Shown: in pieces, positions 11,390 through 51,833 of the stretch
Layout of the letters: each line of letters opens with the position of its first letter
Position numbering within the stretch: position 1 is the stretch's first letter
Assembly (NCBI GenBank): GCA_965226495.1
Contig: OZ245365.1
Span: 1,856,001-1,920,000 of the forward strand
Direction of reading: 5' to 3'
From: Candidatus Marinacidobacterales bacterium
GTDB taxonomy: Bacteria; Acidobacteriota; Vicinamibacteria; Marinacidobacterales; DATDRI01
DNA: 64,000 nucleotides
The notes under the pieces: generated by a model
What the model was told of the DNA's origin: nothing
The model's database searches: none
Seen by the model: only the letters and a program-made list of their open reading frames with translations
Made by a program: the position numbers and the translations under genes

Positions 11390-11394
11390 ACTTC

Positions 11395-11885: not shown

Positions 11886-12602
11886 GGAACAAACCGCGAA
11901 TTAACTCGGGATAATCGTGCGCGGGACGGTACACGATGCACGGATTGAAAACGAGGCAATAGCCGAGCTGGTAGCCCGGGTGCTGACCGTCGCGCTTGCC
12001 GGGGATCGGCTCGCCCGGTGAGTCCCCATCTTCACGCATGTTCAGCTCCGGATTCGGTGTGTAAGAAAGTTTGGTGGGTGGATCATTGAGTAGGTAGTCG
12101 GAGGGCGCCTCCACCGACGATTCGGACGGTCCACTTTCGCACCGATGAGGGCTTCGGGTCACGTTCTCTGTAAGTCGTACCTGCCACTTGTTAGCCTATC
12201 TCGATTAAAACAGTCGGTGGGAGGTTTGACAGGAGCCTCAGAAGGGCCTGCCTGCTCCATTAGCTTTTGGGGCTTGAGAACCAGTCGGGTTTTGGAGCAA
12301 AATAATGGGGTCTCCGGACCCCGACCGGAGAGCAGGTAAAAATGGCAGGAGGAAACTCATGCGTATGAGGACGATAGCGCCGTCAATCATTGGCATTATT
12401 GTGGCGGCTAACTTCGCCGTAGGTCAGTCTCTCGCGGAGCTCGCAGAGAAAGAAAAGGAGAGGCGGAAGAGCAACGACCAGGAAGCAACCATCGTGGTCA
12501 AGAACAGGGGAGTATGGCTGGTCCCGGTGACCTGCTCCCTAAAAACTGTGACAAGTCGAAAGCAGAAGTGAGCTGAGATAATGGCCGGGAAAAGGAGCGG
12601 TC

Positions 12603-33711: not shown

Positions 33712-34836
33712 TCATTGGTAGTTTTCGATGACGTAAATATCGGACTGATCGGTGTCGCGGGTGTAGAAGATCTTTTGCCCATCCGGAGACCAGCCACCGT
33801 TGTGAGGGTGCCATCGCTCTCGACCCTCCGTGATCTGCACCGGCAGTCCCGCGGGCTCCGGCAGCTCTTCCGGCGCGGAAGGCGGGGTTAGGGGCAACAC
33901 GTAGAGCTCTTGGCCGAAATGGCTGGGCCCCTTGCAGTAGGCGACGGCGCGGCCGTCCGGAGAGACGGCCATCTCGATGGTCGCACCTTCAAGTAGCCTG
34001 GCCTCTCTGCCGGTGGTCAGGTTCCTGACCACCATTTCCCGTCCACTGCCGTCGGAGACCATACGAGAGTAAATTACATGTTGGCTGTCCAGATACCAAT
34101 CAAAGTAGAGGACATCGGTTAGCACCGGCCCTGCGACATCATCGTCTCGGGACACGACCCAGAGCGAAACTCCCGAATCGTCAATGGCCAGGGCGGCGAT
34201 GGCCTTCCCGTCGGGAGACCACCGCGTGCCTGCCCGCACCAGGTTCGGACCCTGCTGGCCAGCCGTTTGAATCGGCTCCTCGTGTAAAAGGCTTGGGGAG
34301 GTACCGTCGATCGACACTGTCCAGAATTGGTATTGCCCCTCTCGGTTGGACAGGAACGCGATCTCGCCTCCGTCCGGAGACCAGGAGGCGCCGATGTCGT
34401 TTGCTGGATTTTCTGCGAGCTGGCGCTCCGACCCGCTCTCCAGGTCCATGAGCCAGATCTCGTTATTGCCGGTGCGATTCGAGCTATACAGTAGGCTGTG
34501 CCCGTCGGGGGAAAGACGTGGGTAGAAATTGCTTCGAGTGTGATGAGTGAGGCGTTCTTCCCTAGCTGTCTCGACGTGTGTCCAGTATAGGTCGGTTTGA
34601 TGACTGAACGGAGCGTACACGAGAGGCCCCTTGCTTGAAACGGCGAGCGAGAGATCCCACTCGCTGGTAGTGAGCTGACGTAGTTGGCCGGATCGAATAT
34701 TGATGTCCCAAATGTTTTGCATACCGGCGCGGTGAGAACGGAAGAGGACACGCTGACTGTCGGCGGAGAAGGCCGCCTCGACATTGACGTACGGCTCGTC
34801 GACGAGGGGTTGGGGCTCGCCCCCATTGGCTGGCAA
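33712..34836 (-). pseudogene. 5'-truncated second copy of the PD40 regulator
   Basis: Near-identical to 30435-31555; lacks wHTH and TM. Confidence 0.85.
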
Positions 34837-35633: not shown

Positions 35634-37802
35634 TCAGAACTTTTCGAGAGTGAGCAGCCAGATGTCGGATTCGCGACTGACCAGTGAGAAATAGATCGCG
35701 CGATCGTCCGTTGTGGTGCGAGAGACGCGGGTCAGTTCGACTGGGTGTCCCATAAGAGCACCCGGCGCAAATATCTCGCGATATTCTTTGGACTCACTAT
35801 CGAGAATGAAGAACTTGCCCTGAGTACGCTCGGTAAAAAGGAGTCTGTGGCTATCGTTGAGCCAGACCGGCCTTGTTCCGAAATCCGTTAACTGGCGGTA
35901 TTCCTTCGACTCGAGATCGTAAAGGATGATGCTTTCGTCGAGCGAATGGAGGGCCAGACGCCGCCCATCGGGAGACCATGACATCACCTGCAATCTCTCA
36001 CTCTTGCCCTCAAACGGCGGCATAGCTTCCGGAAGCGTTTCAGTCCACGGCTTGCCCAGCTCGACGACATAAGACCAGACTTGAGGAAAGAGAGTGTAGG
36101 CTATGCGCAAGCCATCCGCCGACCAGACGGGAAAAGAAGCATCGTAGCCCGGGGTGTTGGTGACTTGCTGAAGGCCGCTACCGTCCGGATTCACGATCCA
36201 GATCTCGGACGTACCGCTCCGGTACGACTGAAAAGCGATCCGCTCGCCGTCGGGGGACCATTGGGGATGACGATCCCTAGCGTCCGTGAGCTGGCGGATC
36301 CCGGTGCCATCCGTACGGATGAGGGAGATGCCATGCGGTGGTCTACGCGAAGAGAAGGCGAGCCATTCACCGTCGGGTGAGGCACTGGGGCCGATGGCCG
36401 TGTTGGAACCTCGAGTGATGGCGACCGGTTCACCCTGAACTTTTTCTGCCGTCTCATCGAAGGCAATCTTGTAGAGATTGAAGTTCTCGACCCCCCGCGA
36501 CGCGTAAGCAATTCTTCGCCCGTCCCCAGACAGCGTCGGATGTACCGCCGAAGCGCCCGCACCGGTGGTCACCGGTTCCGGCTCACTAAGGATCTTGCCC
36601 GATTCCTCTTCAATCGCGACTCGCCATAGGTTCATGCTGCCGCTCCGGTCGCTGGAAAAGTAGATGTAGCTCCCGTCCGGAGACCAGACCGGGTTCCAAT
36701 TTACATAGGCACCGTCCGTGACCCGTAGCGCTTCACCCCCCTTCGCCGATATGGTCCAGATGCCTGGGTGATCGGTCTTCTTGGAGAAATTCTTAGAGAA
36801 ATAGGCAACCCGGTGACCGTGAGGCGACCAGCGGGGCTGAGACGCGTCCTTTCCGGCAATCAGCCGTCTCTCGCCCGTGGCAATATCGATCGCCCAAAGC
36901 TCGCTGACCTTCCATCGCACCGGCCACCAAGTAGGCGCGGTGGCGAAGAGGATTTCCCTGCCATCGGGCGACCAGACCGGGTCGTAACCGAAATCCGTCA
37001 AGCGCCTGACCGATTCGCCAGTCGCCCCCATCAAGAAAATGCCGCCACCGTCTCGCTCGGAGCGGAACACAATGAGCTCGCCATCCGGGGAGAAGGCCGG
37101 TTGTGTGTCATCGGCGGGAGAATCCGGAGTCAGGTTAGTGGCGTTCCGCCCCTGCACCCTTCGGACGTAGACGTCCCAGTTGCCGGCGGCCCGGCTGGTG
37201 TAGGCGATGAATCTTCCGTCCGGCGACAGGCTGGGGAAGAGCTCCTCACCAGGTTCTGAAGTCAATTGGGAGAAGGTTCCCTGGACCGCAGAGGCTCCGA
37301 TTTGCCTGGTATCTCGGGCGAGCGGCACTGCCAGATAGACTGCGACCGCAGAGATAACGGCTCCTAGGGCTGCCCAAAGAGCCCGCCGGCTGATGCGCTT
37401 CGGCTCGGGCAGGCCCCGTTCCTCGAAAGCGAACGAACCCTCCACCGGCGAGACCGAAGCATTGAGTCGGTAGCCTTTTTTCGGAACCGTCTGGATCAAT
37501 CCGGAGTCGTTCGCCTCCTCGCCAAACGCCCGGCGCAGCTTCCCGATCGCGTTGGTGAGCACCTCATCGGTGACGAACGTACCCTCCCAAACCGCCTCGA
37601 GGATCTGTTCCCGCGAGACCACCTCGCCAGCGTTCTCAACCAGATAGGCGAGCACCTGCATCGCCCGTGGTTCGATTTTGATTGTGTTGCCGTGTCGTTC
37701 GATGAGGTCTCGCCGCGGATCGACGAGCGATTCACCGACGTGGAAGGCATTCTGGATCAGAGCTGGCCTCCTGATCCTACTATGGCCGGAGTCTAGCACC
37801 AT
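35634..37802 (-). CDS. wHTH-TM-PD40 regulator (copy 3)
   Basis: wHTH nearly identical to copy 1; divergent propeller with WSPDG repeats. Confidence 0.9.
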   Translation of the reverse strand: MVLDSGHSRIRRPALIQNAFHVGESLVDPRRDLIERHGNTIKIEPRAMQVLAYLVENAGEVVSREQILEAVWEGTFVTDEVLTNAIGKLRRAFGEEANDSGLIQTVPKKGYRLNASVSPVEGSFAFEERGLPEPKRISRRALWAALGAVISAVAVYLAVPLARDTRQIGASAVQGTFSQLTSEPGEELFPSLSPDGRFIAYTSRAAGNWDVYVRRVQGRNATNLTPDSPADDTQPAFSPDGELIVFRSERDGGGIFLMGATGESVRRLTDFGYDPVWSPDGREILFATAPTWWPVRWKVSELWAIDIATGERRLIAGKDASQPRWSPHGHRVAYFSKNFSKKTDHPGIWTISAKGGEALRVTDGAYVNWNPVWSPDGSYIYFSSDRSGSMNLWRVAIEEESGKILSEPEPVTTGAGASAVHPTLSGDGRRIAYASRGVENFNLYKIAFDETAEKVQGEPVAITRGSNTAIGPSASPDGEWLAFSSRRPPHGISLIRTDGTGIRQLTDARDRHPQWSPDGERIAFQSYRSGTSEIWIVNPDGSGLQQVTNTPGYDASFPVWSADGLRIAYTLFPQVWSYVVELGKPWTETLPEAMPPFEGKSERLQVMSWSPDGRRLALHSLDESIILYDLESKEYRQLTDFGTRPVWLNDSHRLLFTERTQGKFFILDSESKEYREIFAPGALMGHPVELTRVSRTTTDDRAIYFSLVSRESDIWLLTLEKF

Positions 37803-37909: not shown

Positions 37910-38002
37910 TTTCGGGACTCGATTGTCGACTCCTTGCTACTCATCACTAGGACGACGGCGGCCGGCGCTCTGCGACCGCCGAATCGACGAGGAGGGTCAG
38001 CA

Positions 38003-38140
38003 ATGAGAAAACGAGATGTCCGCTTCCGGCATAGCGCTTTCTGCATGTTGTGTGCACTGATTCTTGCGGGTACCGCCGCGCACAATGGTCCTGGAACAAG
38101 TTGTAGCCCGCAAAAGTCTATTGAAAGGAGAATAAGGTGA
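38003..38140 (+). pseudogene. Truncated leader homologous to the 32782 gene (45 aa)
   Basis: MRKRDVRFRHSAFCMLCALILAGT vs MRKRDVRFCCSAFCMLCALILVGT; stop overlaps the next start (GTGA). Confidence 0.7.
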
Positions 38141-39636
38141 ACCTAATGAACGCCTTGCGAGGAACTCGATGGACGAAAATCGCCGCGTTCGCTCTATGCT
38201 CGTGCGTGGCGGGGGTGCTCGTCGCCACGCCACAAAAGGGAAAAAAACCCGAGAAGCCTGCGAGCTCATGCGACGTGATTCAACCCCTGAACCCAGACTT
38301 CACCCTGGTGGCCACGCTGCAAGCCAGCATCCCGATGGCGAACGTCGGGTTTGGCGGGGGCGTTAGTGCGACGTCCTTCGGAACGGAGGTCGTGGTCGCA
38401 GTGGGGTCCTTTTTCGAGACGGACACGGTGGAGGTCTTCCAGTTGAATCTCGACGGGTCGCCGGCGGCGGCCCAAGTCACCCTAACTGTCCCTGTCTCCG
38501 GGCGGTACGACAATGTTGTTATCGCTGCCGTGAACACCGATAACTTTCCAGACATCGTCGTTGGAGACGGCAAGAGTGCGTTCTTGTTCCTCGCCGATGC
38601 CTATGGAAATGGTGGATACGAAGCTCCCATCGAGCTCCTGCCCTCCGAGGCCAGCTTAGGCTTTGGTTCTTCGATTGCCGTCGGAGATCTCATCGAGGAT
38701 GGAATGAATAATCCGGATGGTTATCCCGACATCGTCGTCGGCGCTCCCGCCAGCGGCACCAAAGACAGTGGCAAGGTGTTCATTTTCGAGCCGTCGGGAG
38801 CGATGTTCCCCTCCTCCAGCCTCACGATTGACGGGGCGGATCGACCCGGCGCCCAGAGCGGTGATCGGTTTGGCCAGAGCGTAGCGGTCGGAGATGTCAC
38901 GGGGGCGTCCATGAACGAAGATCTCATTGTATCCGCTGACCGTGCCGATGAAGGCAAAGGCAAACACAACGTCGGCAAAGTGTGGGTGTTCCCGGGAGCT
39001 CTTAACGGCTCCCCCTTTCTGCTCGCCCAAGGGGAAAAGAGTGCCTCTCTGGGGAACAAGGTGGCGGCGGCAGATCTTACCAACAGCGGGTTCCGCGATG
39101 TGGTGGTCACAGATTTGGGTGAGGAGGCGCTGGTCTTTCCAGGTCTGGTTCCAAACGGCCCTGTCCCAGTCGTCCTTCTCCCCGATCCTAGCCTCGCCGG
39201 GACCGGAGGCTATGGGCAAGCCATAGCGGCGGGCGACATCGATGGGGACGGGCGTCCGGATCTGATCGTGGGGGCCAGGCTAGCCAGACCACCGGGGTGC
39301 AACCGCAACATTGGAGCGGCTCAGGTCTACTTGTCCGACGTCGCCGATTCTAAGCCCTATGGATTCCTCTTGCAGCCGCCAGACACAGAGGGCGGCAATT
39401 ACGGAGTTGGCGTGGCGGTCGCCTCTGGACTCGTCTTCGTCGGCGAGTTTGGTCGCGATGCAGTCGATGGCGGCAATTTACTCGATGCCGCCGGTCTGGT
39501 TTACGTGTACGGGCTGGTGGACACCGATGGTGATGGTGTTCCGGACGTCCAGGATAACTGCCCTCTGGTGTCCAACCCTCTTCAACTGGATGCCGACGGG
39601 GACGGTGTCGGAGATGCCTGCGACCCGACTCCATAA
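38137..39636 (+). CDS. Exported FG-GAP/integrin-alpha-like propeller with C-terminal thrombospondin type 3 repeat
   Basis: FG.S.A.GD..DG.PD.VVGAP repeats; [29 protein letters not shown]. Confidence 0.88.
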
Positions 39637-39807
39637 GGGCTAAGTACGCGACAACACTGAGCGCGAGTCCGGGAGCCTCACTTCGGCTGAGGCCCCCGAT
39701 TTGCTTCGTGTGCGCCAGGAAGGGTGGGCTGTCACTACCACCTAGGTTGGAGGTATCGAGATCTCAAGAGATCCACATACCTTGGGGCTACGCGTGCTTC
39801 TCATGCT

Positions 39808-41010
39808 CGTAGGGTCAAAATACTCATGCGGCCTTCCGGTAGTAGAATTTCAGCAGCCCGCCGAGACGTTCGCGACAGCGAATCGCTCCGTCTGCCGCGT
39901 TCGTCTGGCCCACACGGGGAAACAACAACAGATTGTTCTTGCCTTGATGATTCCTCTCGTGATGATGATGTGCGACGTACTCCTTCAGCGCGTGACGAAG
40001 CGACCTCTCCCCGAACAAGATAAGCTTCGAGAGACATTCCTCTTTGACGGACTTCACCCAGCGCTCCGCGAACGAGTTCAAATCCGGGCTCCGCGCGGGC
40101 AGCTTGACAGGCGTGACGCCGACCGACTCAATGGTGGCCCGGAACGACTCGCAGAACTTGGAATCCCGGTCGTGGATAAGATATCGGCTCGAGGACAGAA
40201 AGCCGACATCGGCCATCGTCACGTTGCGGGCCACTTGAGTCATCCACTGTTCGTTCGGATGCGGCGTGATGCCGGCAATGTAGACGCGTCGCGTAGCCAG
40301 GTGGATGAAGAACAGAACGTAGTACGTCACCAACCCGCCCTGAGCCCACACCTCCGCGGTGAAGAAATCTGTCGCCGCGAGGACATCCATGTGCGAGCGA
40401 ATGAACTCCGTCCAGGTGCTGGCCTTCTTTCGCTCAGGGGCAGGTGGTATGCCGTGACGCCTCAGGATGTTACCTACGGCTGGGTCGCTGACTTCATGCC
40501 CGAGATTGGCTAACGCCCCGGCAATCCGGTCGTAACCCCAGGACTTGTTCTCCTTGGCGAGATGCACCACCAGCTCTTCGATGTCGGCGTCGACCCGCGG
40601 CCGCCCTGGATACTGACGGTTCTTGGAGCCGTCGAACTTCTTCGCAACAAGCCTCCGGTGCCAGCCCAGGATCGTCTCGGGCTTCACGATGCTCGCTACT
40701 TCGTCGAGCGCTCGTTTGCCGAGCTGTTTTCCGATCTCGGCCAGAGACCGCCGTTCGCCATCGGTCAGGCGCAAACGACCCTGGATCTGATCTCGAAGAA
40801 TTCGATTCTCGGCCACAAGATACTCGTTCCGCAGGAGCAACTCCTCATCCACGGATCCTGAGATGTAGGCCAGCATGGTCTTCCAGTCCATCGCGACTCC
40901 TTCCGGTGAACCGGTGTTATACGTATCCGACCGCGATGGCGGATTCAAGCCACCTTTGGGAAGGTGCAAACTGCTGACCCGGCTGGGCGTTCGAGTATTT
41001 TGACCAGACG
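39808..41010 (-). mobile_element. Integrase-core (DDE) transposase element, CDS 39824-40891, with 18-bp inverted ends
   Basis: DFFT, IHDRDSKF, NSFAERWVKSVKEECL; CGTAGGGTCAAAATACTC / GAGTATTTTGACCAGACG (16/18). Confidence 0.85.
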
Positions 41011-41084
41011 GGAATGGCATCCCGTCCCCTACGTCGATTCTCACAAAGATTCTCACAAAGCCGAGCTCGTATATTCGGCACAAG

Positions 41085-41205
41085 CTCCTGTGTCTTCTTC
41101 GAGACCGTGGGCTCGTTTCCCGTCTATCCCAGCGACACCAAGGGATTGCACAAGCTCGCTTGTTATCTCATGCGGGCTCACGTGAACCTGTCCCGACTTC
41201 GGCTC
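41085..41205 (+). pseudogene. IS91-family transposase remnant
   Basis: VYPSDTKGLHKLACYLMRAHVNLSRL resembles VWPQNTEGLERLCRYLLRCPLSLSRI at 59.3 kb. Confidence 0.6.
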
Positions 41206-41259
41206 TTCGTCCTCGACCGCCGCGGCCCGCCCGGGCAAGTGTAATAATATGTAACATTG

Positions 41260-41288
41260 TTGACAGGCATCCGCAATTCTGTTAGGAT
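41260..41288 (+). promoter_or_regulatory. Sigma70-type promoter of the XRE-ino1-IPCT/DIPPS operon
   Basis: TTGACA-17 bp-TAGGAT with extended -10 TG; overlapping inverted repeat TGACAG..CTGTTA. Confidence 0.7.
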
Positions 41289-41322
41289 ACCGTTTCCATG
41301 AGAAGGAGCGGGGAGACCAGCC

Positions 41323-42645
41323 ATGGCCCAGAAGCTTAAGGATATAGGTAGTATTCTCCAGGAGGCGCGGACGTCACGCGGTTTCACTCAGGCTGACATT
41401 GCACCTCGGCTTGGTGTATCGCGAGCCACCGTCGCTCAGATCGAGACAGGGCGGCGATCCTTGAAGGCTGAAGACCTGCGCCGGCTAGCTGCCTTCTATG
41501 GTTGTAGCCCCAGCGAGCTCCTGCCCCGGGCTACCGACGACGAGGAAGTGGATGGCGTCGCCGAGCTGTTCCGCTCCCATCCTGATCTCGCGGAAGATCA
41601 GGGGCCGAGTTCCTTCGCCGGTGTGTGCGCGATGGCGAGAGCTCTCACCCATCTGGAAGCAAGACTCGAGATCGACGCCCTTGCACACCCGCTTCCTCTG
41701 TACCGAATTGAGCGCGCAGATACGCCGTGGCAAGCGGCGCAGCAAGGACATCGCATTGCGGAGGATGAGCGGCGGCGCCTAGCACTTGGAGAGGGGCCCG
41801 TCCGTTTCGTCGATGAACTGCTCATGACGTCGGGCGTTCGTTCGGCCAAGGCAACTCTGCCTAAAGGAATCATCTCGATTTCGATCGCTCACCCGGACCA
41901 CGGGCTTCTCGTTGTGGTCGACAAGAATCTTAGTCTCGAACACCGCCGCTTCAGATACGCACACGGACTTGCCCATTTCTTGTTCGATACCGAAGCGCCG
42001 TGGCGCGTATGCATTTCTAGCGTGGCGCCTGATCTTGCGGAGCTGAGGGCCGACGCTTTCGCAAGCGGCCTTCTGATTCCCCAGCATGGCCTGCGTCGAT
42101 ACGTGGAGACCCTCGGCAAAGAGACATTGGGACGCGCTGGTCCCACGGTGCTCTCCGTGTTTTCAGAGGGCGACGGTCGCGACACGACGGGCGAGAGCCG
42201 TCGGGTGGATGGTCGCCAGCGCAAGGGTTGTACCCCGATCACCTTGTCGGATGTCCTACGCACGGCTCACTACTACGGCACGAGCCCTAGAGTGGCTGCG
42301 CATCGTTTGAGGAACCTCCGGCTCTTAACGGACCGGGAACTCGATCAACTAGAAACGATGATGCAAAGTGAAAAGCATACGCCAATCGAAAGGGAATTTG
42401 CGCTACCGCCAGCACTCCATGAGATGGACTCCCTTTGTTCTCGACTGGCAGCGCTGGCGGCCAGTGCACTCCATCGGGGAAGTATCAATGTCCCCAGATT
42501 CAACGAACTAGCGGATCTCGCGGGAGTTCGCGTGGCCGACCGAGAGCGTATCTTGGCCATTACGGCGACGCCTCCACGACAAGAGCGTGAGACTTCTAGC
42601 CAAACATCCGAGGCGACCACCTCACAGGAGAAGGAGCATTCATGA
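41323..42645 (+). CDS. XRE-HTH + ImmA/IrrE-like domain regulator (HExxH degenerate to HGxxH)
   Basis: TQADIA..GVSRATVAQIETG; RRFRYAHGLAHFLFD; ELRADAFASGLLIP. Confidence 0.88.
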   Translation: MAQKLKDIGSILQEARTSRGFTQADIAPRLGVSRATVAQIETGRRSLKAEDLRRLAAFYGCSPSELLPRATDDEEVDGVAELFRSHPDLAEDQGPSSFAGVCAMARALTHLEARLEIDALAHPLPLYRIERADTPWQAAQQGHRIAEDERRRLALGEGPVRFVDELLMTSGVRSAKATLPKGIISISIAHPDHGLLVVVDKNLSLEHRRFRYAHGLAHFLFDTEAPWRVCISSVAPDLAELRADAFASGLLIPQHGLRRYVETLGKETLGRAGPTVLSVFSEGDGRDTTGESRRVDGRQRKGCTPITLSDVLRTAHYYGTSPRVAAHRLRNLRLLTDRELDQLETMMQSEKHTPIEREFALPPALHEMDSLCSRLAALAASALHRGSINVPRFNELADLAGVRVADRERILAITATPPRQERETSSQTSEATTSQEKEHS

Positions 42646-43916
42646 AAAGTGAAATCAAGATTGCAATCGCGGGCGTTGGCAACTGTGCCAGCTCCCTGGT
42701 TCAGGGACTTGAGTACTATCGGCACCACGATACCTCAGAAGCTGCCGGGCTTATCCATCCTGAACTTGGTGGCTACCGAATCGAGCACGTCGAGGTCGTT
42801 GCTGCATTCGATGTGGATCGGCGAAAAGTAGGGCGGCCCCTTCACGAGGCGGTTTTTGCCAAACCCAACTGCACAACAGTGTTCCAACGAGAACTTTCCG
42901 AGACTAGCGTCACTGTCCAGATGGGGCCCGTCTTGGACGGGATTGCGGGTCACATGGATCGCTATCCCAACGACCGGGCCTTTCGTCTGTCCGATGCCGA
43001 GCCGGTTGATATTTTGGAAGCGCTCAATGCATGCGGCGCGGAGATCCTCGTCTGCTACCTGCCGGTAGGTTCGGAGCAGGCCGTGCGACACTACGCGAAG
43101 GCGTGCCTCGATGCTGGTGTCGCCATGGTCAACTGCGTGCCGGTGTTCATCGCCTCTCATCCGGAGTTCGCCGAGGAGTTCAAGAAGAAAGGACTTCCGA
43201 TAGTAGGCGACGATATCAAGAGCCAGTTCGGCGCCACGCTCCTGCACCGAATCATCACGCGCACACTCGGCGACCGTGGCGTGAAGATCGAGCGTACCTA
43301 CCAACTCAACACGGGCGGCAATACCGACTTCCTGAATATGTTGGAACAGACCCGACTCGCGACCAAGAAAGTCTCAAAGACGGAATCGGTGCAGTCTCAG
43401 CTCGACCAACGCCTCGCGGACGAGAACATTCACATCGGCCCCTCCGACTACGTGCCCTGGCAGAACGACAACAAGGTCTGCTTTCTTCGCATGGAATGGC
43501 GCGGCTTCGGCGACGTTCCGATGAACCTCGAGGCGCGGCTCTCCGTTGAAGACTCGCCGAACTCCGCGGGCGTGGTGATCGACGCCATCCGGTGCGCCAA
43601 GCTGGCACTCGACCGAAAGATCGGCGGGCCGCTGGATGCTGCATCCGCCTGCATGATGAAGCACCCGCGGAAGCAGATGCGCGACAGCGAAGCATTTATT
43701 GCACTGGAGCGGTTCATTCGAGGGCAAGATGGCATGACCAGCGCCCCGTTCCACGACACATCGACGGACTCTCAGGAGACGCTGACGTTGCTGAGGCCGC
43801 ATCAAGTGGATTCCCTACAGGTGCTCGATCAGGTTCGACCTGGGCTGGACCAGAGGGAAGCAGTTGGTGTGAATGCCAAGGGCGATGACCAGCTTGATCG
43901 CGGCGGCAAGCTCTGA
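42642..43916 (+). CDS. ino1: myo-Inositol-1-phosphate synthase
   Basis: GVGNCASSLVQG, YLPVGS, GDDIKSQFG, GGNTDFLNM, DSPNSAGV; ATGA overlap with the regulator. Confidence 0.95.
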   Translation: MKSEIKIAIAGVGNCASSLVQGLEYYRHHDTSEAAGLIHPELGGYRIEHVEVVAAFDVDRRKVGRPLHEAVFAKPNCTTVFQRELSETSVTVQMGPVLDGIAGHMDRYPNDRAFRLSDAEPVDILEALNACGAEILVCYLPVGSEQAVRHYAKACLDAGVAMVNCVPVFIASHPEFAEEFKKKGLPIVGDDIKSQFGATLLHRIITRTLGDRGVKIERTYQLNTGGNTDFLNMLEQTRLATKKVSKTESVQSQLDQRLADENIHIGPSDYVPWQNDNKVCFLRMEWRGFGDVPMNLEARLSVEDSPNSAGVVIDAIRCAKLALDRKIGGPLDAASACMMKHPRKQMRDSEAFIALERFIRGQDGMTSAPFHDTSTDSQETLTLLRPHQVDSLQVLDQVRPGLDQREAVGVNAKGDDQLDRGGKL

Positions 43917-43936
43917 GCTCGCAAAGGAGATCGTTG

Positions 43937-45388
43937 ATGTCCTCGATAATACCGATTACTGACGCTAAGAAAAACAATTCCGGCAGCCTCCCTGTCGTCG
44001 TGTTGGCGGCCGGCAAGGGTTCCCGTGTAGCTTCGCTGGGCAATGGCCGCCCTAAGCCAACGCTTCGTTTGCTCGGCCTGTCCCTTGCCGAACGGATCAT
44101 CCTCTCCTACCAGGCAGCGGGTATTCAACGCTTCGTAGTGGTCCTGGGCGACCGTGCAGACGAGGTGCGTGAACACTTCCTGGATGTAGCGGTGCGGCGC
44201 GGCTGCGAGGTGGAGTGCGTCGTTGCCACCGACTGGCAGCTGGGAAACGGGGCCAGTGCTCTCGCCGCGTTTCGCATGGTGGAGGAGGAGCCCTTTCTGC
44301 TAACGATGGCCGACCATCTGATCGATCCCTCGCTGTTGGAGCAAGTTTTGGCCGCCCCTCCTGGCGAGGACGAGATTTGCCTGGCAGTGGATTCGAACAA
44401 AGAGAATCTCCTCGATCTCGAGGACGTGATGAAGGTGGACGTCGCAAACGGTCGGGTGGCCCGGATTGGAAAAGGCCTGAGGGATTGGGACGTAGCGGAC
44501 ACGGGAGTTTTCTACTGCACGCAGGTCCTTTTCGAGGGTATCCGGCAGGCATCGGCCAAGGGACAGTATGGGCTTTCGGACGCGGTCAGGGAGCTAGCGG
44601 CTGAGCGTCGGGTTCGCGTGGTCGACGTCACGGGGAAGCGATGGATTGATATGGACAACGCATTGGCATTCCGCCATGCGAAGCGGTGGCTTCTTTCCTC
44701 GGTCGTCAAGAACACGGACGATGGCTATGTTTCGGCGTATCTCAACCGTCCTCTCTCCTTACGGCTCTCGAGTCTGCTGGCCGAGGCGCGGATCTCTCCC
44801 AACCTCATTACCCTTGTCAGCTTCTTGCTTGCCCTGGGCGGCGCAGTGCTTTTCTCTCTACAGGGTTACATGGCGGGGCTGATGGGGGGACTCTTGGTTC
44901 AGTTCTCCTCGGTAGTGGACGGCTGTGATGGTGAGGTGGCTCGTCTCAGACAGATTGCCAGCCCCAGAGGAGGTTGGCTCGATACGATACTCGACCGCTA
45001 CGCGGAGCTTGCGGTGGTGCTGGCCATCACCTTTTCTTACTCCACCTCCCATCCGGGCCCTCTCGCCTGGATGGGGGGTCTCCTTTCCATTTCCGGGTAC
45101 TACATGGCAAGCTACGTGACCAAGGAGTTTGCCCTCCGGCACGGCAAAGCCTACCCGCCCAACTTCCTAAACCGCATTAAACGCCGGGACCTCCGCCTGT
45201 TAGGGATTTCGGTGGGGGCCGTATTGGGCATCGCGTTTGAAGCTATGGTTGGCCTTGGCGTGCTCAGCCACCTTTGCGTGGTGGGAATCTTGGTCCGCGG
45301 CTGGCGGCAAGGGGACCATTTCCAGCTAGCCGCATCATCAAAACGTGCACTCGACCTGGAAAAGGCGCCGGGCCCAGCGGTCATCTGA
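43937..45388 (+). CDS. Bifunctional NTP-transferase / CDP-alcohol phosphotransferase (IPCT/DIPPS-like)
   Basis: LAAGKGSR..PKP, MADH, DTGVF; LNRPLS, SPNLIT, DGCDGEVAR..GGWLDTILDRY. Confidence 0.9.
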   Translation: MSSIIPITDAKKNNSGSLPVVVLAAGKGSRVASLGNGRPKPTLRLLGLSLAERIILSYQAAGIQRFVVVLGDRADEVREHFLDVAVRRGCEVECVVATDWQLGNGASALAAFRMVEEEPFLLTMADHLIDPSLLEQVLAAPPGEDEICLAVDSNKENLLDLEDVMKVDVANGRVARIGKGLRDWDVADTGVFYCTQVLFEGIRQASAKGQYGLSDAVRELAAERRVRVVDVTGKRWIDMDNALAFRHAKRWLLSSVVKNTDDGYVSAYLNRPLSLRLSSLLAEARISPNLITLVSFLLALGGAVLFSLQGYMAGLMGGLLVQFSSVVDGCDGEVARLRQIASPRGGWLDTILDRYAELAVVLAITFSYSTSHPGPLAWMGGLLSISGYYMASYVTKEFALRHGKAYPPNFLNRIKRRDLRLLGISVGAVLGIAFEAMVGLGVLSHLCVVGILVRGWRQGDHFQLAASSKRALDLEKAPGPAVI

Positions 45389-45599
45389 AAGCTTATTCCA
45401 GCCCAGGTGGCTGGCACAGCCCGACCAACAAAATATTGGGCGGGCCGAGCGACCGACACTGCGGGAACGCCTACTCGCAAAAATAGTTGGGGAACTTACG
45501 GTCTGGCTGTAGTCTGAGGCTCACAAGGGTGCGTCCGCGGGGGTGGATGCACTGAATCAGCTGATCGACCTATGGCCGCTTTTTAGAAGGAGCCGTGTC

Positions 45600-46240
45600 A
45601 TGGCAATTCGTTTGGGAGATACGGCTCCAGATTTCAAAGCCGATACGACAGAGGATCCCTTCAATTTCACGACTGGATCGGGGATGGTTGGGCCGTGTTG
45701 TTCTCGCACCTCAAGGACTTCACGCCAGTCTGCACCACCGAGCTGGGTGAAGTAGCGAAGCTCAAGAGCGAGTTCGACAGGAGGAACGTCAAAGTCGTGT
45801 GGCTCAGCGTGGACAAAGTCGGCGATCACAGGAGGTGGTCCGAAGCCTTCAAGGAGACGCAGGGGGCGGCCGTCAACTTCCCCCTGATCGACGACGCCAA
45901 TTGGAAGGTGTCGGATCTCTACGACATGATCCATCCGGAAGCCGACAACACGATGACCGTGCGATCGGTTTTCGTGATAGGTCCGGACAAGAAAGTAAAG
46001 CTCAGCATTACGTACCCGGCGAGCACTTGACGCAATTTCGACGAGATCCTGCGCGTGATCGACTCTCTACAGCTGACTGCGAACTATCAGGTGGCGACAC
46101 CCGTGAACTGGAAGGACGGCGATGACGTCATCATCGTACCTGCGGTGAGCAACGAAGAGGCGAAAAAGAAGTTCCCCAAGGGCTTCAAAGAAGTAAAACC
46201 CTACTTGCGCGTGACCCCTCAACCGAATCGCGACGCGTAA
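45600..46240 (+). pseudogene. 1-Cys peroxiredoxin (Prx6) pseudogene
   Basis: DFTPVCTTE; frameshift near 45655; TGA at 46028 replaces Gly of YPASTGRNFDE; further P>L and G>W changes. Confidence 0.88.
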
Positions 46241-46552
46241 GCCCGCGTCCCAGGGAGCTTGTTAGGCGATCCCCGGCGTCAGGCCGGGGGATCCACATCA
46301 AAGAGCACCGATCCGTTCTGCACGAACGGTCCACGCGCTCGAACCCATCCGGATTAATAATGATGAGGGACAGGCCCACGGGCAATGCGCTCGGCGACTG
46401 TGTATCTAGCAGGGCCCGCGTCGATAACCTATACTCTTCTCGTACACGTCAGACTCATCGACCCGCGAAACGGGGGAGGCCTTTTATGTCGGGAAGGGGC
46501 AGAGCACCGGCTCTTCCCAGGCGTCGGGTGTGGAAGTGCAACTTTGAGCTCC

Positions 46553-48739
46553 ATGGTATTTGAGAACTACGGCGGTATATTCCAGCTGCGTCTGGAAACG
46601 GCTGAGGATCTCGCCTCTCTGGGGAAACTGAAAGAGTCCAGGTGGGCGGCAACGAGCGCGCTGGTTGACTGTTTTCGCTGCGATCCCGCCGTGCTGAAGT
46701 GTCTCGACCCCGATGAGACCGGACGCATCCGCACCCAAGACCTGAAAGATGCGCAAGAGTGCCTGTTTCACTTCTTGAGCAACCGCGAGGGTACCACCCA
46801 GCAGAGCGACGTTCTGCGTCTCGACGACTTGGACACGACCCACTCGGAAGGCTCCAAGCTGCAAGAAGTTTGTAAGTGGATTCTAGAACAACTCGAAAGG
46901 CAAGGGAGCAAGGAAATCTCCCTCAAGCAGATTCGCGCCTTTCGCGCCGGCTACGCTCGCGTCTTCCCGAACGGAGACGGCATCGTGCCGCTGGTCGATA
47001 TCGAAGCCGAAAACACCCGGGCGTTCTGCGCGGATGTCGTCAAATACGCGGGGGAAGTCAAGGACGCTGCCGGAAAGATCGGATACGGGAAGGAACAGCT
47101 CCAGCGCTTTCTTGATCGCGCGCGAGCCATGCGGGATTGGATGGTCGAGGGAAAGCAGACGGCGGCAGGCGAGCAACGCAGCTCGGAGCTCTGGACGTGG
47201 GGCGATGCCACGCCCGAAGCGACCGCCATCGTCTTCATTCTCGAAGCGAAGCTCGAGCAGTTCTTTTTGCAATGCGACTTGTTGAGGGTGGAGCCTCGTG
47301 CGGCGAGCCGATTCGAGCTGAGCGAGGAGGAGCTCGATGGATTCGAACTCGAGGACGCCCTCGCCATCGAAAAGAGATTGAGCATGGCCCCGCTCAGTCG
47401 TCCGAACGCAGCCGGAGAATTGAACCTGAATAGCGCTCTCAATCCCTGTTATGAAGAACGGGTCTGGGAGCTCCGAGACAAAGTCCTGAAGCGAGCCTTG
47501 GGAACGGAAGTGGAGAAGCTTACCCGCGAAGACTGGGAAAAGGTGAAGGCTCTTTTCGAGCCGCACAAAGCCTGGTATGACGCGAAACCGAAAGACGAGA
47601 TCGAGGCTCTCGGAGAGGAAAGACTGACCGCCTACCTTGAAGGCGAGCTGCCGACAGAAGCGGAGGTGCTCATCGAACGCGACTTGTCCGTCAGAGATGA
47701 GCTCGAGCAAATCGCCACGGTGGAGAAGCTCTGCCTGCTGCAGCGCTGGCTCCTGGAGCTCGCGAACAACTTCGTGAACTTCTCCCAGCTGTATGACCCC
47801 AATCGGCGATCCCTTTTCGAGGAAGGCACATTGGTCATCGACGGTCGCGAATTAGCGTTCAGCATGAAAGTGACGAACCGCTCCGAGCATAGGAAGATCG
47901 CCGAAACGAGCCGTATGTTTCTCATCTACGCCGAGATCACCTCCAAGGTAATCACTTCCTCGCATCGTGAAAAGTTCGAGCTCGTCGTGGCGGTAACGGC
48001 AGGCCAGCGAGGCGGCATTTCCGTCGGTAAACGAGGCGTCTTCTTCGACATCGAGGAGCGCGAATGGGACGCGCGCATCGTGGAAGTCGTGGAGAATCCC
48101 ATCAGCCTGTGGGAGGCGGTGAAAGCACCGTTTCAGCGAATCGCAGGACTGGCCGCTCAGAAAGTGGAGCGGATCGCCGCAAGAGAGACTGAATCGATCG
48201 AAAAGGCCACCGAAGCGGGCTTGGAGAAAATCGACGCCACACCTGCAAGAGAAGAAGCCGCCGCCCCGGTTCACAAAACGTCGGTTCGCGACCTTTTGCT
48301 CGGTGGCGGCCTTGTTTTCGCCGCAGTGGGCTCCTCGCTGGCGTTCATTGTCAAGACCCTCTCGGAAGTGAATCCTTTGCACCTGGGGGCGGTGGTTCTG
48401 GCCCTGGTAAGCATCGTCACGCTCTCGAGCGGACTTCTCGGCTACCTAAAACTGCGATCGCGCGACATGAGCGCCCTGCTAGAAGCGGCGGGTTGGGCGG
48501 TGAACTTCCGCATGAAGCTGACGCGACGTTTGGGCCGACTCTTCACCCACAGGCGGGAGTTGCCCAAAGACGCGGTCAAGAGACGTCGCGATCTCATCGA
48601 CGGTTTTCTCGCCGAAATCGACGTGGCACCGTCCAGGCGGGGGCGGATTCTTGCCCTGATCGCCGTGCTCTTGGTGGTGGTTCTCGGGGTACTGGCTTAC
48701 TTGAATCCGGAGGTCTTGGCGGACCTCTCGTTGTGGTGA
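46553..48739 (+). CDS. Large conserved hypothetical protein with C-terminal TM helices
   Basis: Long ORF; EF-hand-like DPDETGRIRTQD; three hydrophobic segments near the C-terminus. Confidence 0.7.
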   Translation: MVFENYGGIFQLRLETAEDLASLGKLKESRWAATSALVDCFRCDPAVLKCLDPDETGRIRTQDLKDAQECLFHFLSNREGTTQQSDVLRLDDLDTTHSEGSKLQEVCKWILEQLERQGSKEISLKQIRAFRAGYARVFPNGDGIVPLVDIEAENTRAFCADVVKYAGEVKDAAGKIGYGKEQLQRFLDRARAMRDWMVEGKQTAAGEQRSSELWTWGDATPEATAIVFILEAKLEQFFLQCDLLRVEPRAASRFELSEEELDGFELEDALAIEKRLSMAPLSRPNAAGELNLNSALNPCYEERVWELRDKVLKRALGTEVEKLTREDWEKVKALFEPHKAWYDAKPKDEIEALGEERLTAYLEGELPTEAEVLIERDLSVRDELEQIATVEKLCLLQRWLLELANNFVNFSQLYDPNRRSLFEEGTLVIDGRELAFSMKVTNRSEHRKIAETSRMFLIYAEITSKVITSSHREKFELVVAVTAGQRGGISVGKRGVFFDIEEREWDARIVEVVENPISLWEAVKAPFQRIAGLAAQKVERIAARETESIEKATEAGLEKIDATPAREEAAAPVHKTSVRDLLLGGGLVFAAVGSSLAFIVKTLSEVNPLHLGAVVLALVSIVTLSSGLLGYLKLRSRDMSALLEAAGWAVNFRMKLTRRLGRLFTHRRELPKDAVKRRRDLIDGFLAEIDVAPSRRGRILALIAVLLVVVLGVLAYLNPEVLADLSLW

Positions 48740-49118
48740 GACAAGTTGAGCGCCGGCCCTCTGTGCCAACGTGCGTGAGACAGGGAGACCCTTTGAGTTT
48801 AATGTAGAGGGCGGAGGAGTGATGTCCCATGAACGCCTCTCCCAGAGAAATGCAGTTTGAGGAAACCTCGGAAACGGAAGAAGCGGGTAGCGACAGACCA
48901 CGATGGCAGGTGGCGAGTCTCAATCTCGTAGGGCCCGGTTTGCATCCTCGTTGGTTTTCCTCTAGCATCACGGGCTTGTTGTAAACGGCATGGAAGGCAC
49001 CGCGTGCACGAAAAGGACCAGTCATTATTGGTTTGTCGTTCTCGTCAAGAGTGCTGACGCGGTCGAGCCTGAGTTTGTGGAACCACACTGAATCATCAGA
49101 CGACGAGGAGATTCCGAA

Positions 49119-49628
49119 ATGAGGATATACCCCCGTACCGAAAGTCCAAGGGGCTTTACCGCAATTCTGTTTTGCCTGATGGTGCTTGCTCTAGCCGTCG
49201 CTTGTGGCGGAGGCGGCGACTCGGGAGAGGAAGTCGCTGAACCCGGAACCACGGAGGAGCTCGCCGCCGAGGAGGAAAGCTCGGGCGCCCCGCGGGTGTT
49301 CTTCACCGAGCCGTCCGACGGCGCCACGGTGACGTCACCGGTGACGTTCACGTTCGGCCATGAGAATTACTCCATCGAGCCCAAGGGTGAAGTTCACGCA
49401 GGCGCCGGACACCATCACATCGGCCTCGACACCGACTGCCTCCCGCCGGGCGAGGCCATTCCGGAAGCGGCTCCGTGGGTCCATTTCGGTGATGGCTCGG
49501 CAACGATCGACATGCAGCTGCCTGCAGGTCAGCACACGCTGACGATTCAGATTGGCGACGGCGAGCACGTGACGTCGGACGAGCCTGGCCTCTGTCAGAG
49601 CATTACCATTACCGTCGAAGAAGGGTAG
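49119..49628 (+). CDS. DUF4399-family lipoprotein
   Basis: Lipobox LAVAC; GHHHI, VHFGDG, LPAGQHTL.IQIGDG.H. Confidence 0.8.
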   Translation: MRIYPRTESPRGFTAILFCLMVLALAVACGGGGDSGEEVAEPGTTEELAAEEESSGAPRVFFTEPSDGATVTSPVTFTFGHENYSIEPKGEVHAGAGHHHIGLDTDCLPPGEAIPEAAPWVHFGDGSATIDMQLPAGQHTLTIQIGDGEHVTSDEPGLCQSITITVEEG

Positions 49629-50063
49629 AACGTTTCATTAACTTGGTCACCCTCCGCTGGCAGATGAGGACCACCGTCAGCGGGAGAGGCTCTTGGCCAG
49701 TCGCGCTCGCGTCTTGGTCGGCGAGTTTGGCGGTGCGGGGAGCACCCTCGCTTCGTTGGGCCCAGTCGGGCTTCAGGTACAAGAGCTTCTCCTGAAGAAC
49801 CTCGATCTGGCGGCTCCAGCCATACCGGTGAAAACCGTCGGGGCAGATGTGATTGCGGTCGGCGGCACCGGCGCGCCTTCCGGAGCGTTGGCGCTCTTCC
49901 AGCCGCCGGTCGATCCCTTGGTGGCACCTCTGGTCTACACGCCACCCCTTCAGATCTTTGCCCACCGGGTGGCGTACGGCTGGGTCGCCCCATCGACCGA
50001 CCACGAGGCTTCAAAAAGGTGGTAGGAGAAGCCTAATCACCATAAACGGGAGTCAAGCCCTTT

Positions 50064-50290
50064 CTATTTGAAATTTTTCCTAAGGGGCGGCTCGATGCCC
50101 GCGAGCGCGGTCGCAAGCCAGCGCTGGCGTTGGCTCGAGTTTTCCAGCGGTCGACTTTCGCGCAGCGTTCTTCGACGAGCGCATGCACGGCCTTCGAGGC
50201 AGTTCGCCGTTTTCAGCAAGCGGCCCAGCACCCCGTACACGCCGAGCCGATGCAACGTCATGGTCTCCTCGAGAAACTCTTCGTCAGTGA
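50064..50290 (-). pseudogene. IS256-family transposase C-terminal remnant
   Basis: LEETMTLHRLGV..LKTANCLE..QRWLATAL..IEP. Confidence 0.7.
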
Positions 50291-50433
50291 CCTGGCCTCT
50301 AGATTCGATTCCATATCTCTGGTAAATTCGCGCCACTTCCGCGGCAATGGGATTCACCCAGACGTAGAAGAAGGACAGCCCTGTGTCACACTTGACATGG
50401 TCATTCGGATTGGCAACAAGAAGGAGGCCCGTT

Positions 50434-51489
50434 ATGGATTTTTTTGCCAACATAAAAGAGCTCAGCGCCTATTTTAGGGACCCTTGGATCCAGTCCTTGG
50501 GGACCGTCATCCTTTCGCTGGTTCTGACCCTCGCCCTGCGCTGGACCCTGCGGTTTATCGTGTTGCCATTGGTTCACAAGACCAAAACTGAGGTGGATGA
50601 TATTACGATAAGGGCGGTCAAAGGGATTCTGACCTATTTGATCCCCTTGATTGGCCTGATGGTGGCCCTCATCCCTTTGTCTTTACCCACACCGATTCCT
50701 CAGCGTGCTCTTTTTTCTTTGCTTGCCATACTGTTGATGCGCAGCGCAATTGGGTTCGTAGATGTGCTGTCCAAGTGGCTGAAAACAACATGGGTGACTC
50801 GTACCCAGTCTACTTTAGATGATGCTCTGCTGCCTCTTATGGGCAAAGCCATAAAGGTAGTTGTGGTGCTTCTCGGTGTGTTGCTAATCTTGCAGCGATG
50901 GGAAATTGAAATTGCTCCCATGTTGGGCGCCCTCGGTATTGGCGGTTTGGCCATTGGCTTGGCTTTGAACAGCAGCCTCTCCAATATCTTTGGCGGCATT
51001 CAGCTTATTTTGGATCGTTCCATCAATGTTGGCGACAAGATCATGCTGGAAAGTGGTGAAGTGGGGGTGGTGCAGGACATTGGCCTTCGTAGCACCAAAT
51101 TACGGACCTATGACAACGAGTTGCTCTCTCTTCCCAATTCGCAACTATCCAATGCGCGGGTCAAGAATTTCACCAAACCCGATGTCAGTATTAGAGTAAC
51201 AGTCAATTTTGGGGTGGCTTACGGCAGTGATGTGGCTCGGGTCAAAGAGCTTGTCGTGGATGCAATTAGCAACTTGGACGATATTTCGCGAGAACCTGGA
51301 CCCCAGGTACTGTTCTTGAATATGAGTGATTTTTCCCTAGATATGTCGGCTCGAGTGTGGGTGGATGATTACGACAAGCAGTTTGCTAGAAAGCTTGAAA
51401 TGACAGAGTTGGTCTACAATACTCTTAACAAAAATGGCATCGAAATCCCTTTCCCCACTCGCACGGTATATATGAAACAATCCGAGTGA
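50434..51489 (+). CDS. MscS-family mechanosensitive channel
   Basis: GALGIGGLAIGLA..SNIFGG, IGLRSTK, IEIPFP; visibly more AT-rich than its neighbours. Confidence 0.92.
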   Translation: MDFFANIKELSAYFRDPWIQSLGTVILSLVLTLALRWTLRFIVLPLVHKTKTEVDDITIRAVKGILTYLIPLIGLMVALIPLSLPTPIPQRALFSLLAILLMRSAIGFVDVLSKWLKTTWVTRTQSTLDDALLPLMGKAIKVVVVLLGVLLILQRWEIEIAPMLGALGIGGLAIGLALNSSLSNIFGGIQLILDRSINVGDKIMLESGEVGVVQDIGLRSTKLRTYDNELLSLPNSQLSNARVKNFTKPDVSIRVTVNFGVAYGSDVARVKELVVDAISNLDDISREPGPQVLFLNMSDFSLDMSARVWVDDYDKQFARKLEMTELVYNTLNKNGIEIPFPTRTVYMKQSE

Positions 51490-51568
51490 TCGGCTTCATC
51501 AGCGATCCCACGTCATTTTGCCATGGGGTAGTCCTTCGAAGTAGCCCGGCAACATTTGATTCCTTCGA

Positions 51569-51660
51569 AAAAGGATAGGAAATTTCATACGTGTCCGGCC
51601 CCGGTCCGCTCGAAATTTCCCCTCTGGGAAGGGGCTGTGCCGTCCAACTGAGTCCTGGTG
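51569..51660 (-). mobile_element. Isolated IS91/ISCR oriIS-like end
   Basis: ~90 bp matching 57001 and 58603; minus strand TATGAAATTTCCTATCC resembles the oriIS consensus. Confidence 0.75.
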
Positions 51661-51833
51661 TGGGTTGTCCCTCGTCATTATTGATCCGGAAACGACCTCG
51701 GCCTACGTGAAACTGCGAAGAGCGAGGCGGCCGGGGTCGATGAGTGCGAGATAATCCTAGGATCGCACCCACAGGTTCAAGCCATTGAGTGCGTCGTTGT
51801 TAAAGGGATCGAGCTGAGCGACGAAGGACGGCT

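Follow-up and report, generated by a model that had tools for sequence, protein, structure and literature searches.

A candidate XRE/M78 regulator at the head of di-myo-inositol phosphate genes in a Marinacidobacterales genome

Gene organization of the locus

The window analysed here is a 64,000-nucleotide stretch of a Candidatus Marinacidobacterales genome (contig OZ245365.1, positions 1,856,001 to 1,920,000), in which three open reading frames (ORFs) of one orientation encode a putative transcriptional regulator (REG), a myo-inositol-1-phosphate synthase (Ino1) and a fused IPCT/DIPPS protein, enzymes assigned to making di-myo-inositol phosphate (DIP; see Table 1). By comparison of sequences, the link between this type of regulator and inositol genes is real and conserved, and it is undescribed in the papers that we found. 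The initial annotation had placed an XRE-ImmA gene overlapping ino1, an NTP-transferase/CDP-alcohol phosphotransferase fusion and a TTGACA-17-TAGGAT promoter at this locus, and all three features were borne out. The REG stop and the ino1 start share the ATGA at 42642-45 (cATGAaa), the fusion is recognised by both Pfam and NF041135, and the promoter carries a TG ahead of its -10 element. No stop codon ends the ino1 core; its frame reads into a remnant of an inositol monophosphatase (IMPase) gene and ends at 43916, which gives a complete ORF of 424 aa including the tail (42642-43916).

The three genes are read as a REG-ino1-IPCT/DIPPS operon because of the ATGA overlap, a Shine-Dalgarno sequence for ino1 within the end of REG, the gap of only 17 nt between ino1 and IPCT/DIPPS, and the absence of an internal promoter-like site between REG and IPCT/DIPPS in a scan of 40900-46500. 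A terminator scan returned 7 sites against 4.8 expected, none of them convincing between or after the genes. Metatranscriptome contigs that are 90-99% alike cover REG and ino1 (four runs, three studies), and the REG-ino1 junction is bridged by contigs in three of the four runs, from two studies (X15 record 2, X18 record 21, X17 record 13). Cover of DIPPS is sparse, and none was observed upstream of 41314 in the four runs. The contig evidence is supportive of the predicted operon, not proof of it. Two points weigh against it: no listed RNA contig from the four runs bridges ino1 to DIPPS, and the contigs are assemblies from relatives, in which DNA carry-over is possible and which do not show a single transcript or its start and level.

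Table 1. Predicted features of the REG locus and its left flank (window coordinates).
Feature	Position	Strand	Basis or remark
Proposed operator O1	41240..41256	+	17-bp palindrome TGTwA-N7-TAACA, here TGTAATAATATGTAACA
Promoter TTGACA-17-TAGGAT, TG-extended -10	41260..41288 (-35 41260-41265, -10 41283-41288)	+	pattern scan
Third operator half-site TGTTA	41280-41284	+	overlaps the -10 element
REG, 440 aa: XRE HTH (residues 1-70), M78/IrrE-like and helical C-terminal domains	41323..42645	+	Pfam, model
ino1 core (myo-inositol-1-phosphate synthase), residues 1-362	42642..43727	+	start overlaps the REG stop
IMPase type A remnant, first 53 codons, in frame with ino1	43734..43892	+	comparison with L033
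IMPase type B remnant, last ~22 codons, different frame	43893..43961	+	overlaps the DIPPS start
IPCT/DIPPS type B, 484 aa	43934..45388 (TTG 43934 or ATG 43937)	+	Pfam, NCBIfam
Insertion sequence (IS) element, IS481/IS3-type DDE transposase	about 39802..41016; ORF 39824-41083	-	38-nt imperfect inverted ends

Conservation of the regulator-inositol linkage

A scan of one genome per species, sorted by tblastn and Pfam, yielded 32 REG loci; 134 clusters of REG relatives were found at E <= 0.001 among the candidates scored. Going by their record titles, the loci lie in metagenome-assembled genomes (MAGs) of Acidobacteriota (Candidatus Marinacidobacterales, Vicinamibacteria), Gemmatimonadota (Longimicrobiales), Krumholzibacteriota and UBP10, and in MAGs labelled 'Delta-/Proteobacteria' or unclassified bacteria. 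The order REG-IMPase-IPCT/DIPPS occurs in 21 loci. Three others insert ino1 after REG (L036, L041, L042), and two have the same order with an IMPase remnant (L024, L026). REG is followed by IPCT/DIPPS in L044 and L053, by ino1 with no synthase nearby in L023, L025 and L048, and by an aminotransferase with separate divergent NTP- and CDP-alcohol transferases in L043. The genes of a locus lie on the same strand and either overlap or are spaced tens of bases apart.

The fused IPCT/DIPPS is located directly 3' of REG in 28 of the 32 loci, with a full IMPase between them in 24, so the link is not private to this genome. The initial annotation had suggested a search for neighbourhoods of XRE-M78, ino1 and IPCT/DIPPS; the synthase was confirmed as a constant partner, with IMPase as the other, but ino1 was observed in just 8 loci out of 32. 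When REG identities are set against DIPPS identities pair by pair, the correlation is r = 0.98 (190 pairs, 20 complete loci), a value that is descriptive only because the loci are kin and not independent; it shows that these genes are passed on together down to about 47-50% identity. The IMPase and IPCT/DIPPS partners persist down to 41-53% REG identity. Among 41 relatives of the window genome (a tally that includes the unpublished G007, on which nothing here depends), full-length REG is present in 5 and IPCT/DIPPS in 8, and all five REG genomes carry the synthase. We found no paper that ties an XRE/M78 regulator to DIP, in agreement with the initial annotation, which knew of no described system with this layout.

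The constancy of these partners bears on whether REG could be a selfish regulator, either an antitoxin or a mobile-element immunity repressor, that merely sits beside inositol genes. Low-scoring NCBIfam hits, both to the spr1629 repressor/antitoxin and to helix-turn-helix (HTH) models of the HipB/HigA type, point in that direction, as do the IS elements that flank the locus and the unrelated module flanks in different genomes (see below). However, in the loci examined REG has no toxin, integrase or phage gene beside it, and IMPase and IPCT/DIPPS are constant partners that co-diverge with REG, which makes this explanation very improbable.

The L043 locus (8592-12436) departs from the common pattern. 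A REG that is 77% identical and has the same operator heads a different gene set: a class-V aminotransferase, a separate NTP transferase, a CDP-alcohol phosphotransferase of divergent sequence and a 374-aa ORF of unknown kind. Its product may be another CDP-alcohol-derived compound.

The M78 domain of REG

REG comprises an N-terminal HTH (HTH_3/HTH_31, residues 9-66) and a Peptidase_M78 domain (residues 194-265), both of which exceed the Pfam cut-offs (for the M78 profile PF06114, 37.4 bits against 22). The HExxH motif position reads H214-G215-L-A-H218, and E240 is also retained. In an alignment of 33 sequences, A-H-G-x-A-H was present in 29 of 29 REGs of the DIPPS clade. All four remote paralogs, about 31-33% identical to REG and neighboured by TraB/PrgY-like, AAA_21 or unknown genes, instead read A-H-E-Y-x-H, i.e. 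HExxH. A REG profile searched against 1.84 billion representatives (50% identity library) returned 293 relatives at E <= 1e-30. The best 150 include 123 with HExxH, 12 with HGxxH and 4 with HAxxH; ten of the best 12 have H(G/A)xxH, and the remaining two (240 and 222 aa) show no complete motif. Profile and fold thus place REG among the M78 metallopeptidases, but the catalytic HExxH with its general-base glutamate is absent. The alignments show a predicted M78 domain without the catalytic glutamate (HGxxH), a change that is clade-specific and fixed. Because REG retains H214, H218 and E240, it may still bind metal or have some remaining or altered activity, which weighs against a purely non-enzymatic role.

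In the AlphaFold2 model of REG (pLDDT 78), a helical linker connects the HTH to an alpha/beta M78 core, and the C-terminal domain that follows is all-helical, with no strands beyond residue 231. Structural alignment of residues ~130-350 by VIA-align gave CapP (7t5t; Z 14.4, rmsd 2.9, 162 aligned), PprI/IrrE (8sln; Z 12.0) and, over residues 132-353, Mycobacterium tuberculosis PrpR (6d2s; Z 10.5). Foldseek recovered CapP (E 1.7e-05), IrrE (9.8e-03) and otherwise HTH proteins; PrpR was found via VIA-align only. A search of the REG profile against solved structures by sequence matched the HTH only, and Pfam searches of residues 265-440 and 70-196 (E up to 10) gave nothing usable. The predicted REG homodimer reached a median score of 0.33 against a mark of 0.42, which speaks neither for nor against binding.

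One alternative is that REG still acts as a protease-type switch in the manner of ImmA/ImmR, IrrE/DdrO or CapP/CapH, in which stress-triggered cleavage of REG, by itself or by another enzyme, would free the operon. The M78 match above the Pfam cut-off, the top structural matches to active proteases (CapP and PprI), the conservation of both His residues and the downstream Glu, the predominance of HExxH in the wider ~420-aa family, and a long low-confidence loop at residues 268-302 that could serve as a cleavage site are consistent with this possibility. Against it stand the replacement of the general-base Glu by Gly, fixed in all 29 clade REGs, the lack of a separate XRE substrate gene in REG loci, and the lack of REG relatives in viral contigs, where no true relative and only one marginal 43-residue match were observed. 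We consider such a switch distinctly unlikely. ImmR/ImmA, DdrO/IrrE (PprI) and CapH/CapP share an XRE module and the M78/COG2856 fold with REG, but they are two-protein systems in which an active HExxH protease cleaves the repressor, whereas REG is a fused HGxxH protein. Furthermore, pairs of the ImmR/ImmA type govern mobile-element, DNA-damage and defence genes, and REG is tied to solute biosynthesis.

The closer comparison, and the best reading by analogy, would be PrpR/RamB (ScfR; Mycobacterium, Corynebacterium) rather than a phage-type switch. Like REG, these one-component regulators combine an N-terminal XRE HTH with an IrrE-like (DUF955/M78) domain in a single chain. According to PMC6765138, their HEXXH motif is not conserved, the IrrE-like domain has lost its protease function and senses a metabolite (the cavity of PrpR holds CoA), and the regulators control adjacent metabolic operons. 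The generalisation in the initial annotation that XRE-ImmA/IrrE fusions usually control prophages, integrative and conjugative elements (ICEs) or DNA-damage responses is accordingly too narrow, because PrpR/RamB run core metabolism. Its proposal of a mobile-element-type switch recruited to inositol genes stands for the inositol link but not for a phage or ICE protease switch, given HGxxH in 29 of 29 clade members and the absence of viral relatives. REG nevertheless differs from PrpR/RamB in several respects. The RamB model matches only the HTH of REG (20.8 bits against a cut-off of 700), so REG is no ScfR member by sequence; PrpR has lost the motif, but REG still has the two His and the distal Glu; and ScfR proteins consist of an HTH, DUF955 and a GAF-like DUF2083, whereas the modelled C-terminal domain of REG is all-helical with no GAF-like part. 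PrpR has a 4Fe-4S site, which is unlikely in REG because REG has only two invariant Cys. The pathways controlled are also different.

The promoter and operator

The promoter is the sole sigma-70-like site in 40900-46500, where shuffled sequences average 1.8. A single site is within chance expectation, and what supports this promoter is its conservation among relatives. In the upstream regions of 28 REG genes, three half-sites were observed at constant spacing: TGTwA at about -83, TAACA at about -71 and TGTTA at about -43. The first two form a 17-bp palindrome that adjoins the -35 element, and TGTTA lies over the -10 element. All three half-sites are present in 12 of the 28 regions and TAACA-N23-TGTTA in about 18, while the spacers and the far upstream flanks diverge between regions that share half-sites. 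O1 also forms the left edge of the DNA common to relatives. The window genome contains three TGTWA-N7-TWACA sites, and the third half-site occurs at the window site only; REG therefore looks like a local autoregulator. A simple pattern search detected no operator-like site ahead of an intact second IMPase-DIPPS pair in this genome, and Rfam detected no RNA family over 38000-52000.

Several points temper the proposed operator. The most distant loci (L049, L052 and L053) have degenerate versions without exact half-sites, and because many of the 32 loci are close kin (REG 76-93% identical), part of the promoter conservation may reflect recent ancestry. In addition, the window promoter has a near-consensus -35 and an extended -10, whereas the Gemmatimonadota loci have a weak -35; with promoter strengths that differ among loci, activation and repression cannot be told apart from sequence.

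The enzymes and their predicted product

Ino1 matches the MIPS (myo-inositol-1-phosphate synthase) model over its full length (residues 5-359 on positions 1-355 of 355 in TIGR03450, 440 bits) and PF01658 with 118.9 bits (cut-off 27), and the genome holds no other close MIPS gene. IPCT/DIPPS has the fused architecture, with NTP_transf_3 at residues 21-157 and CDP-OH_P_transf at 288-417, and aligns with NF041135 (residues 22-455 on 4-415 of 419, 242.8 bits). The Archaeoglobus fulgidus IPCT/DIPPS (4mnd) matches the window synthase at E 6.5e-52. In the alignment to 4mnd, the CDP-alcohol phosphotransferase motif, which we take to be D-x2-D-G-x2-A-R-x8-G-x3-D-x3-D, is intact (DGCDGEVAR LRQIASPR G GWL D TIL D). 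The C-terminal domain alone scores 107.5 bits with DIPPS, compared with 84 for archaetidylinositol-phosphate synthase and 45-47 for two phosphatidylinositol-phosphate synthase models. CDP-inositol is the probable donor because the IPCT domain is fused to the synthase. The IMPases of the clusters have the archaeal FBPase/IMPase as their best model, and archaeal-type IMPase takes the phosphate off DIP-phosphate. Two scores weigh against so specific an assignment: the 440 bits of Ino1 lie below the mycothiol-specific cut-off of TIGR03450 (638), and the 242.8 bits of IPCT/DIPPS lie below the equivalog cut-off of NF041135 (580), a model built for Thermococcales. Fused IPCT/DIPPS homologues formed 511 clusters at E <= 1e-20 among the candidates scored, including MAGs of Planctomycetes and Thermoanaerobaculales. 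One protein of 753 aa (P0341) fuses an IMPase (PF00459) to IPCT/DIPPS and so carries the three late DIP activities in one chain.

DIP has long been taken as a marker of hot marine life. For the window genome, an IVYWREL fraction of 0.411 over 2559 long ORFs corresponds to about 50 C, a rough estimate from a crude ORF set with GC bias that argues only against hyperthermophily. As described in PMC7265257 and PMC8397731, cold hadal and sediment Thaumarchaeota carry IPCT/DIPPS, in one case with transcripts measured at about 2 C and within an island that also holds an additional IMPase and genes for a TATA-box binding protein (TBP) and an AsnC-type regulator. Atribacteria from hydrate-bearing sediment also carry IPCT/DIPPS, and AtiR, an XRE regulator treated in the same source, is an unrelated 85-aa protein (bioRxiv 10.1101/536078). 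The REG loci resemble both hyperthermophile DIP sets and the hadal island in having the same enzymes and a fused IPCT/DIPPS, and they resemble the island further in the extra IMPase beside the synthase, the patchy island-like spread and the non-thermophilic deep-sea hosts (PMC7265257 and PMC8397731). In contrast, the archaeal island carries TBP and AsnC-type genes, and an XRE/M78 regulator with a conserved operator is absent from the papers found. The window itself departs from known DIP sets in its destroyed IMPase and in a synthase that derives from a second lineage.

The enzymes might instead make a CDP-inositol-derived membrane lipid or another product such as glycerophosphoinositol. In Bacteroidetes, an NTP transferase and a CDP-alcohol phosphatidyltransferase beside MIPS have been proposed for phosphatidylinositol, through a CDP-inositol route with a HAD hydrolase that was not confirmed (PMC9246714). 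The score of the window synthase under the DIPPS equivalog cut-off, the probably non-hyperthermophilic hosts, and the aminotransferase with split, divergent transferases beside REG in L043 would fit such a product. Conversely, the fused chain and also its membrane domain alone have IPCT/DIPPS as best model, the accompanying phosphatase is of the archaeal IMPase type that DIP pathways use and not a HAD hydrolase, and the same gene set in cold deep-sea archaea and in Atribacteria was interpreted as a DIP pathway (PMC7265257, PMC8397731 and bioRxiv 10.1101/536078). A product other than DIP thus seems unlikely, and DIP is the preferred assignment.

A mosaic locus and a moving module

The initial annotation found no phosphatase gene in the cluster, which holds for an intact gene; two IMPase remnants were nonetheless observed at the ino1/DIPPS junction. 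Ino1 residues 365-417 share 77% identity with residues 10-62 of the L033 IMPase, starting at the Met of the latter. The window segment 43888-45386 is 98.3% identical over 1499 bp to C1:3595331-3596829 of the same genome (G000), a second locus 1.7 Mb away in which an intact IMPase (L059:8521-9405) overlaps an IPCT/DIPPS (9356-10831) without a regulator. Because of this match, 43893-43961 is assigned as the 3' end of a type B IMPase. The type B synthase of the window is ~47% identical to the usual REG-linked synthases, whereas REG is 81-84% identical to their REGs. Although ino1, IMPase and IPCT/DIPPS do not occur together intact in the window, they do in L036, L041 and L042, and the complete DIP enzyme set is present genome-wide through L059:8521-9405. 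As annotated, all three pathway enzymes are encoded in this genome, split over two places with the entry enzyme behind REG, and the absent phosphatase is read as a local rearrangement, not the design of the system.

A 2.65-kb module (41239/41240-43892), which contains the operator, the promoter, REG, ino1 and the first 53 IMPase codons, recurs with 90-95% DNA identity in G001, G014, G034, G020 and L048. Its flanks are unrelated among those genomes, the same-genus G001 included. L036 has an intact four-gene version with 88% DNA identity. In G034 the module lies between a full type B IMPase just upstream (L026:5695-6549) and a second copy of the last ~45 codons of that IMPase followed by a type B DIPPS, and the promoter with the first 89 REG codons is tandemly duplicated directly ahead of the full REG (L026:7001-7390). 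The IMPase remnant of G001 is interrupted by a Mutator/IS256-family element (L024:9546-10856), and the flanking matches overlap by 11 bp.

A stretch of 66-72 nt at the G001 insertion lies outside the window-homologous DNA, is presumably an element end, and recurs with 97-100% identity at at least 11 sites of the window's genome. About 135 bp between the module and the IMPase 3' remnant of G034 (L015:10368-10503) resemble C1:6283424 and C1:1371610 of the window genome (76-79%) and may be a small dispersed repeat.

Decay of the cluster is also evident in this bacterial order and weighs against a functional unit. REG has in-frame stops in G001 and G020, an IS lies within the G001 copy, G014, G020 and L048 have no DIPPS next to the module, and in the window the IMPase is destroyed. 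The window cluster could hence be a decaying relic, with genes that are non-functional or unregulated and a REG that is irrelevant here. The two IMPase remnants, the foreign 60-residue tail of ino1, the frameshifted peroxiredoxin and IS elements nearby, and the REG stops, IS insertion and DIPPS loss in sister genomes would agree with this. However, the frames and motifs of REG, the ino1 core and DIPPS are intact, the module is preserved at 91-95% identity in five other genomes, contigs from RNA libraries of close relatives cover REG and ino1, and the genome retains an intact IMPase-DIPPS pair for which the window ino1 is the only one. A relic is therefore a doubtful account of the window, and a working unit remains the preferred reading.

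The initial annotation had also set the genes inside mobile DNA, next to IS remnants. An IS does adjoin them, but it is a whole-looking element rather than a remnant, present in single copy in the genome and outside the conserved module; its transposase scores 100.8 bits with NF033577 (IS481), below the cut-off. Other transposase genes are present at 51834-52571 and 55032-55982. Of mobile-element genes, the ORFs scanned between 28 and 57 kb showed IS transposases only, with no integrase, phage or conjugation genes. By its distribution the module is horizontally mobile and the region is IS-rich, but by anything seen it is no prophage or ICE.

Neighbouring genes

Downstream of IPCT/DIPPS, a 1-Cys peroxiredoxin is spread over three frames at 45600-46240 (N-terminal part from 45600, AhpC-TSA 45695-46030, 1-cysPrx_C 46055-46240); either the gene is a pseudogene or the assembly has a frameshift here. 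The 784-aa ORF at 46385-48739 appears to travel with the module. It has ~90% DNA identity to copies beside REG in G020 (divergent) and next to fragments of DIPPS in G012, L036 has a homologue of 35% identity downstream, and the ORF matched no Pfam or NCBIfam family, with Atlas clusters that are unnamed or 'EF-hand' only. A gene for an MscS-type mechanosensitive channel (50383-51489) lies downstream of the solute genes at a distance of 5 kb, within a 2-kb bin of lower GC (0.52 compared with ~0.59), and could be linked to osmotic release. On the minus strand, 30435-32621 and 35634-37802 encode two large paralogs with OmpR-type Trans_reg_C and PD40 beta-propeller repeats, and a third PD40 protein is located at 33712-34836.

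Discussion

Taken together, REG is probably an autoregulated, dedicated one-component transcription factor for the DIP pathway that senses a ligand. Its XRE domain would bind the palindrome beside the -35 element and the half-site over the -10 element of its own promoter and would thereby control one transcript of REG and the downstream enzymes. The M78/IrrE-like and helical C-terminal domains most likely sense a small molecule or a metal, by analogy with PrpR and CoA. As to the direction of control, we lean towards repression that is relieved by the signal. From their sequence assignments, Ino1 would form inositol-1-phosphate, and IPCT/DIPPS would form CDP-inositol and then DIP-phosphate, from which an archaeal-type IMPase would strip the final phosphate. 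The window unit is a mosaic, in which the 2.65-kb module is joined to the last codons of another IMPase and its IPCT/DIPPS. The pair 1.7 Mb away could supply the phosphatase step, and the entry step of the pathway would be under REG because the window holds the only ino1.

A broader scenario is offered only tentatively and is less probable than the role of REG itself. An undescribed XRE clade may have turned its M78 domain into a DIP-dedicated sensor and spread with its operator and promoter over at least five cold or deep-ocean phyla. In Marinacidobacterales, a truncated regulator-ino1 cassette may move between genomes and capture regulator-less IMPase-IPCT/DIPPS operons by recombination inside IMPase and so place them under a pathway-intermediate, pressure or salt signal.

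REG would add to PrpR/RamB another, independent example of an IrrE-like protease fold that serves as the sensor of a one-component regulator, with a clean and clade-specific loss of the catalytic residue, and the window would show a regulator-gene cassette grafted onto a resident operon. The role of DIP in cold deep-sea organisms, perhaps as a pressure or salt protectant, and its control there would gain an experimental handle in a regulator with a recognisable operator, and the ligand of REG would reveal the signal that switches on DIP synthesis in non-thermophiles.

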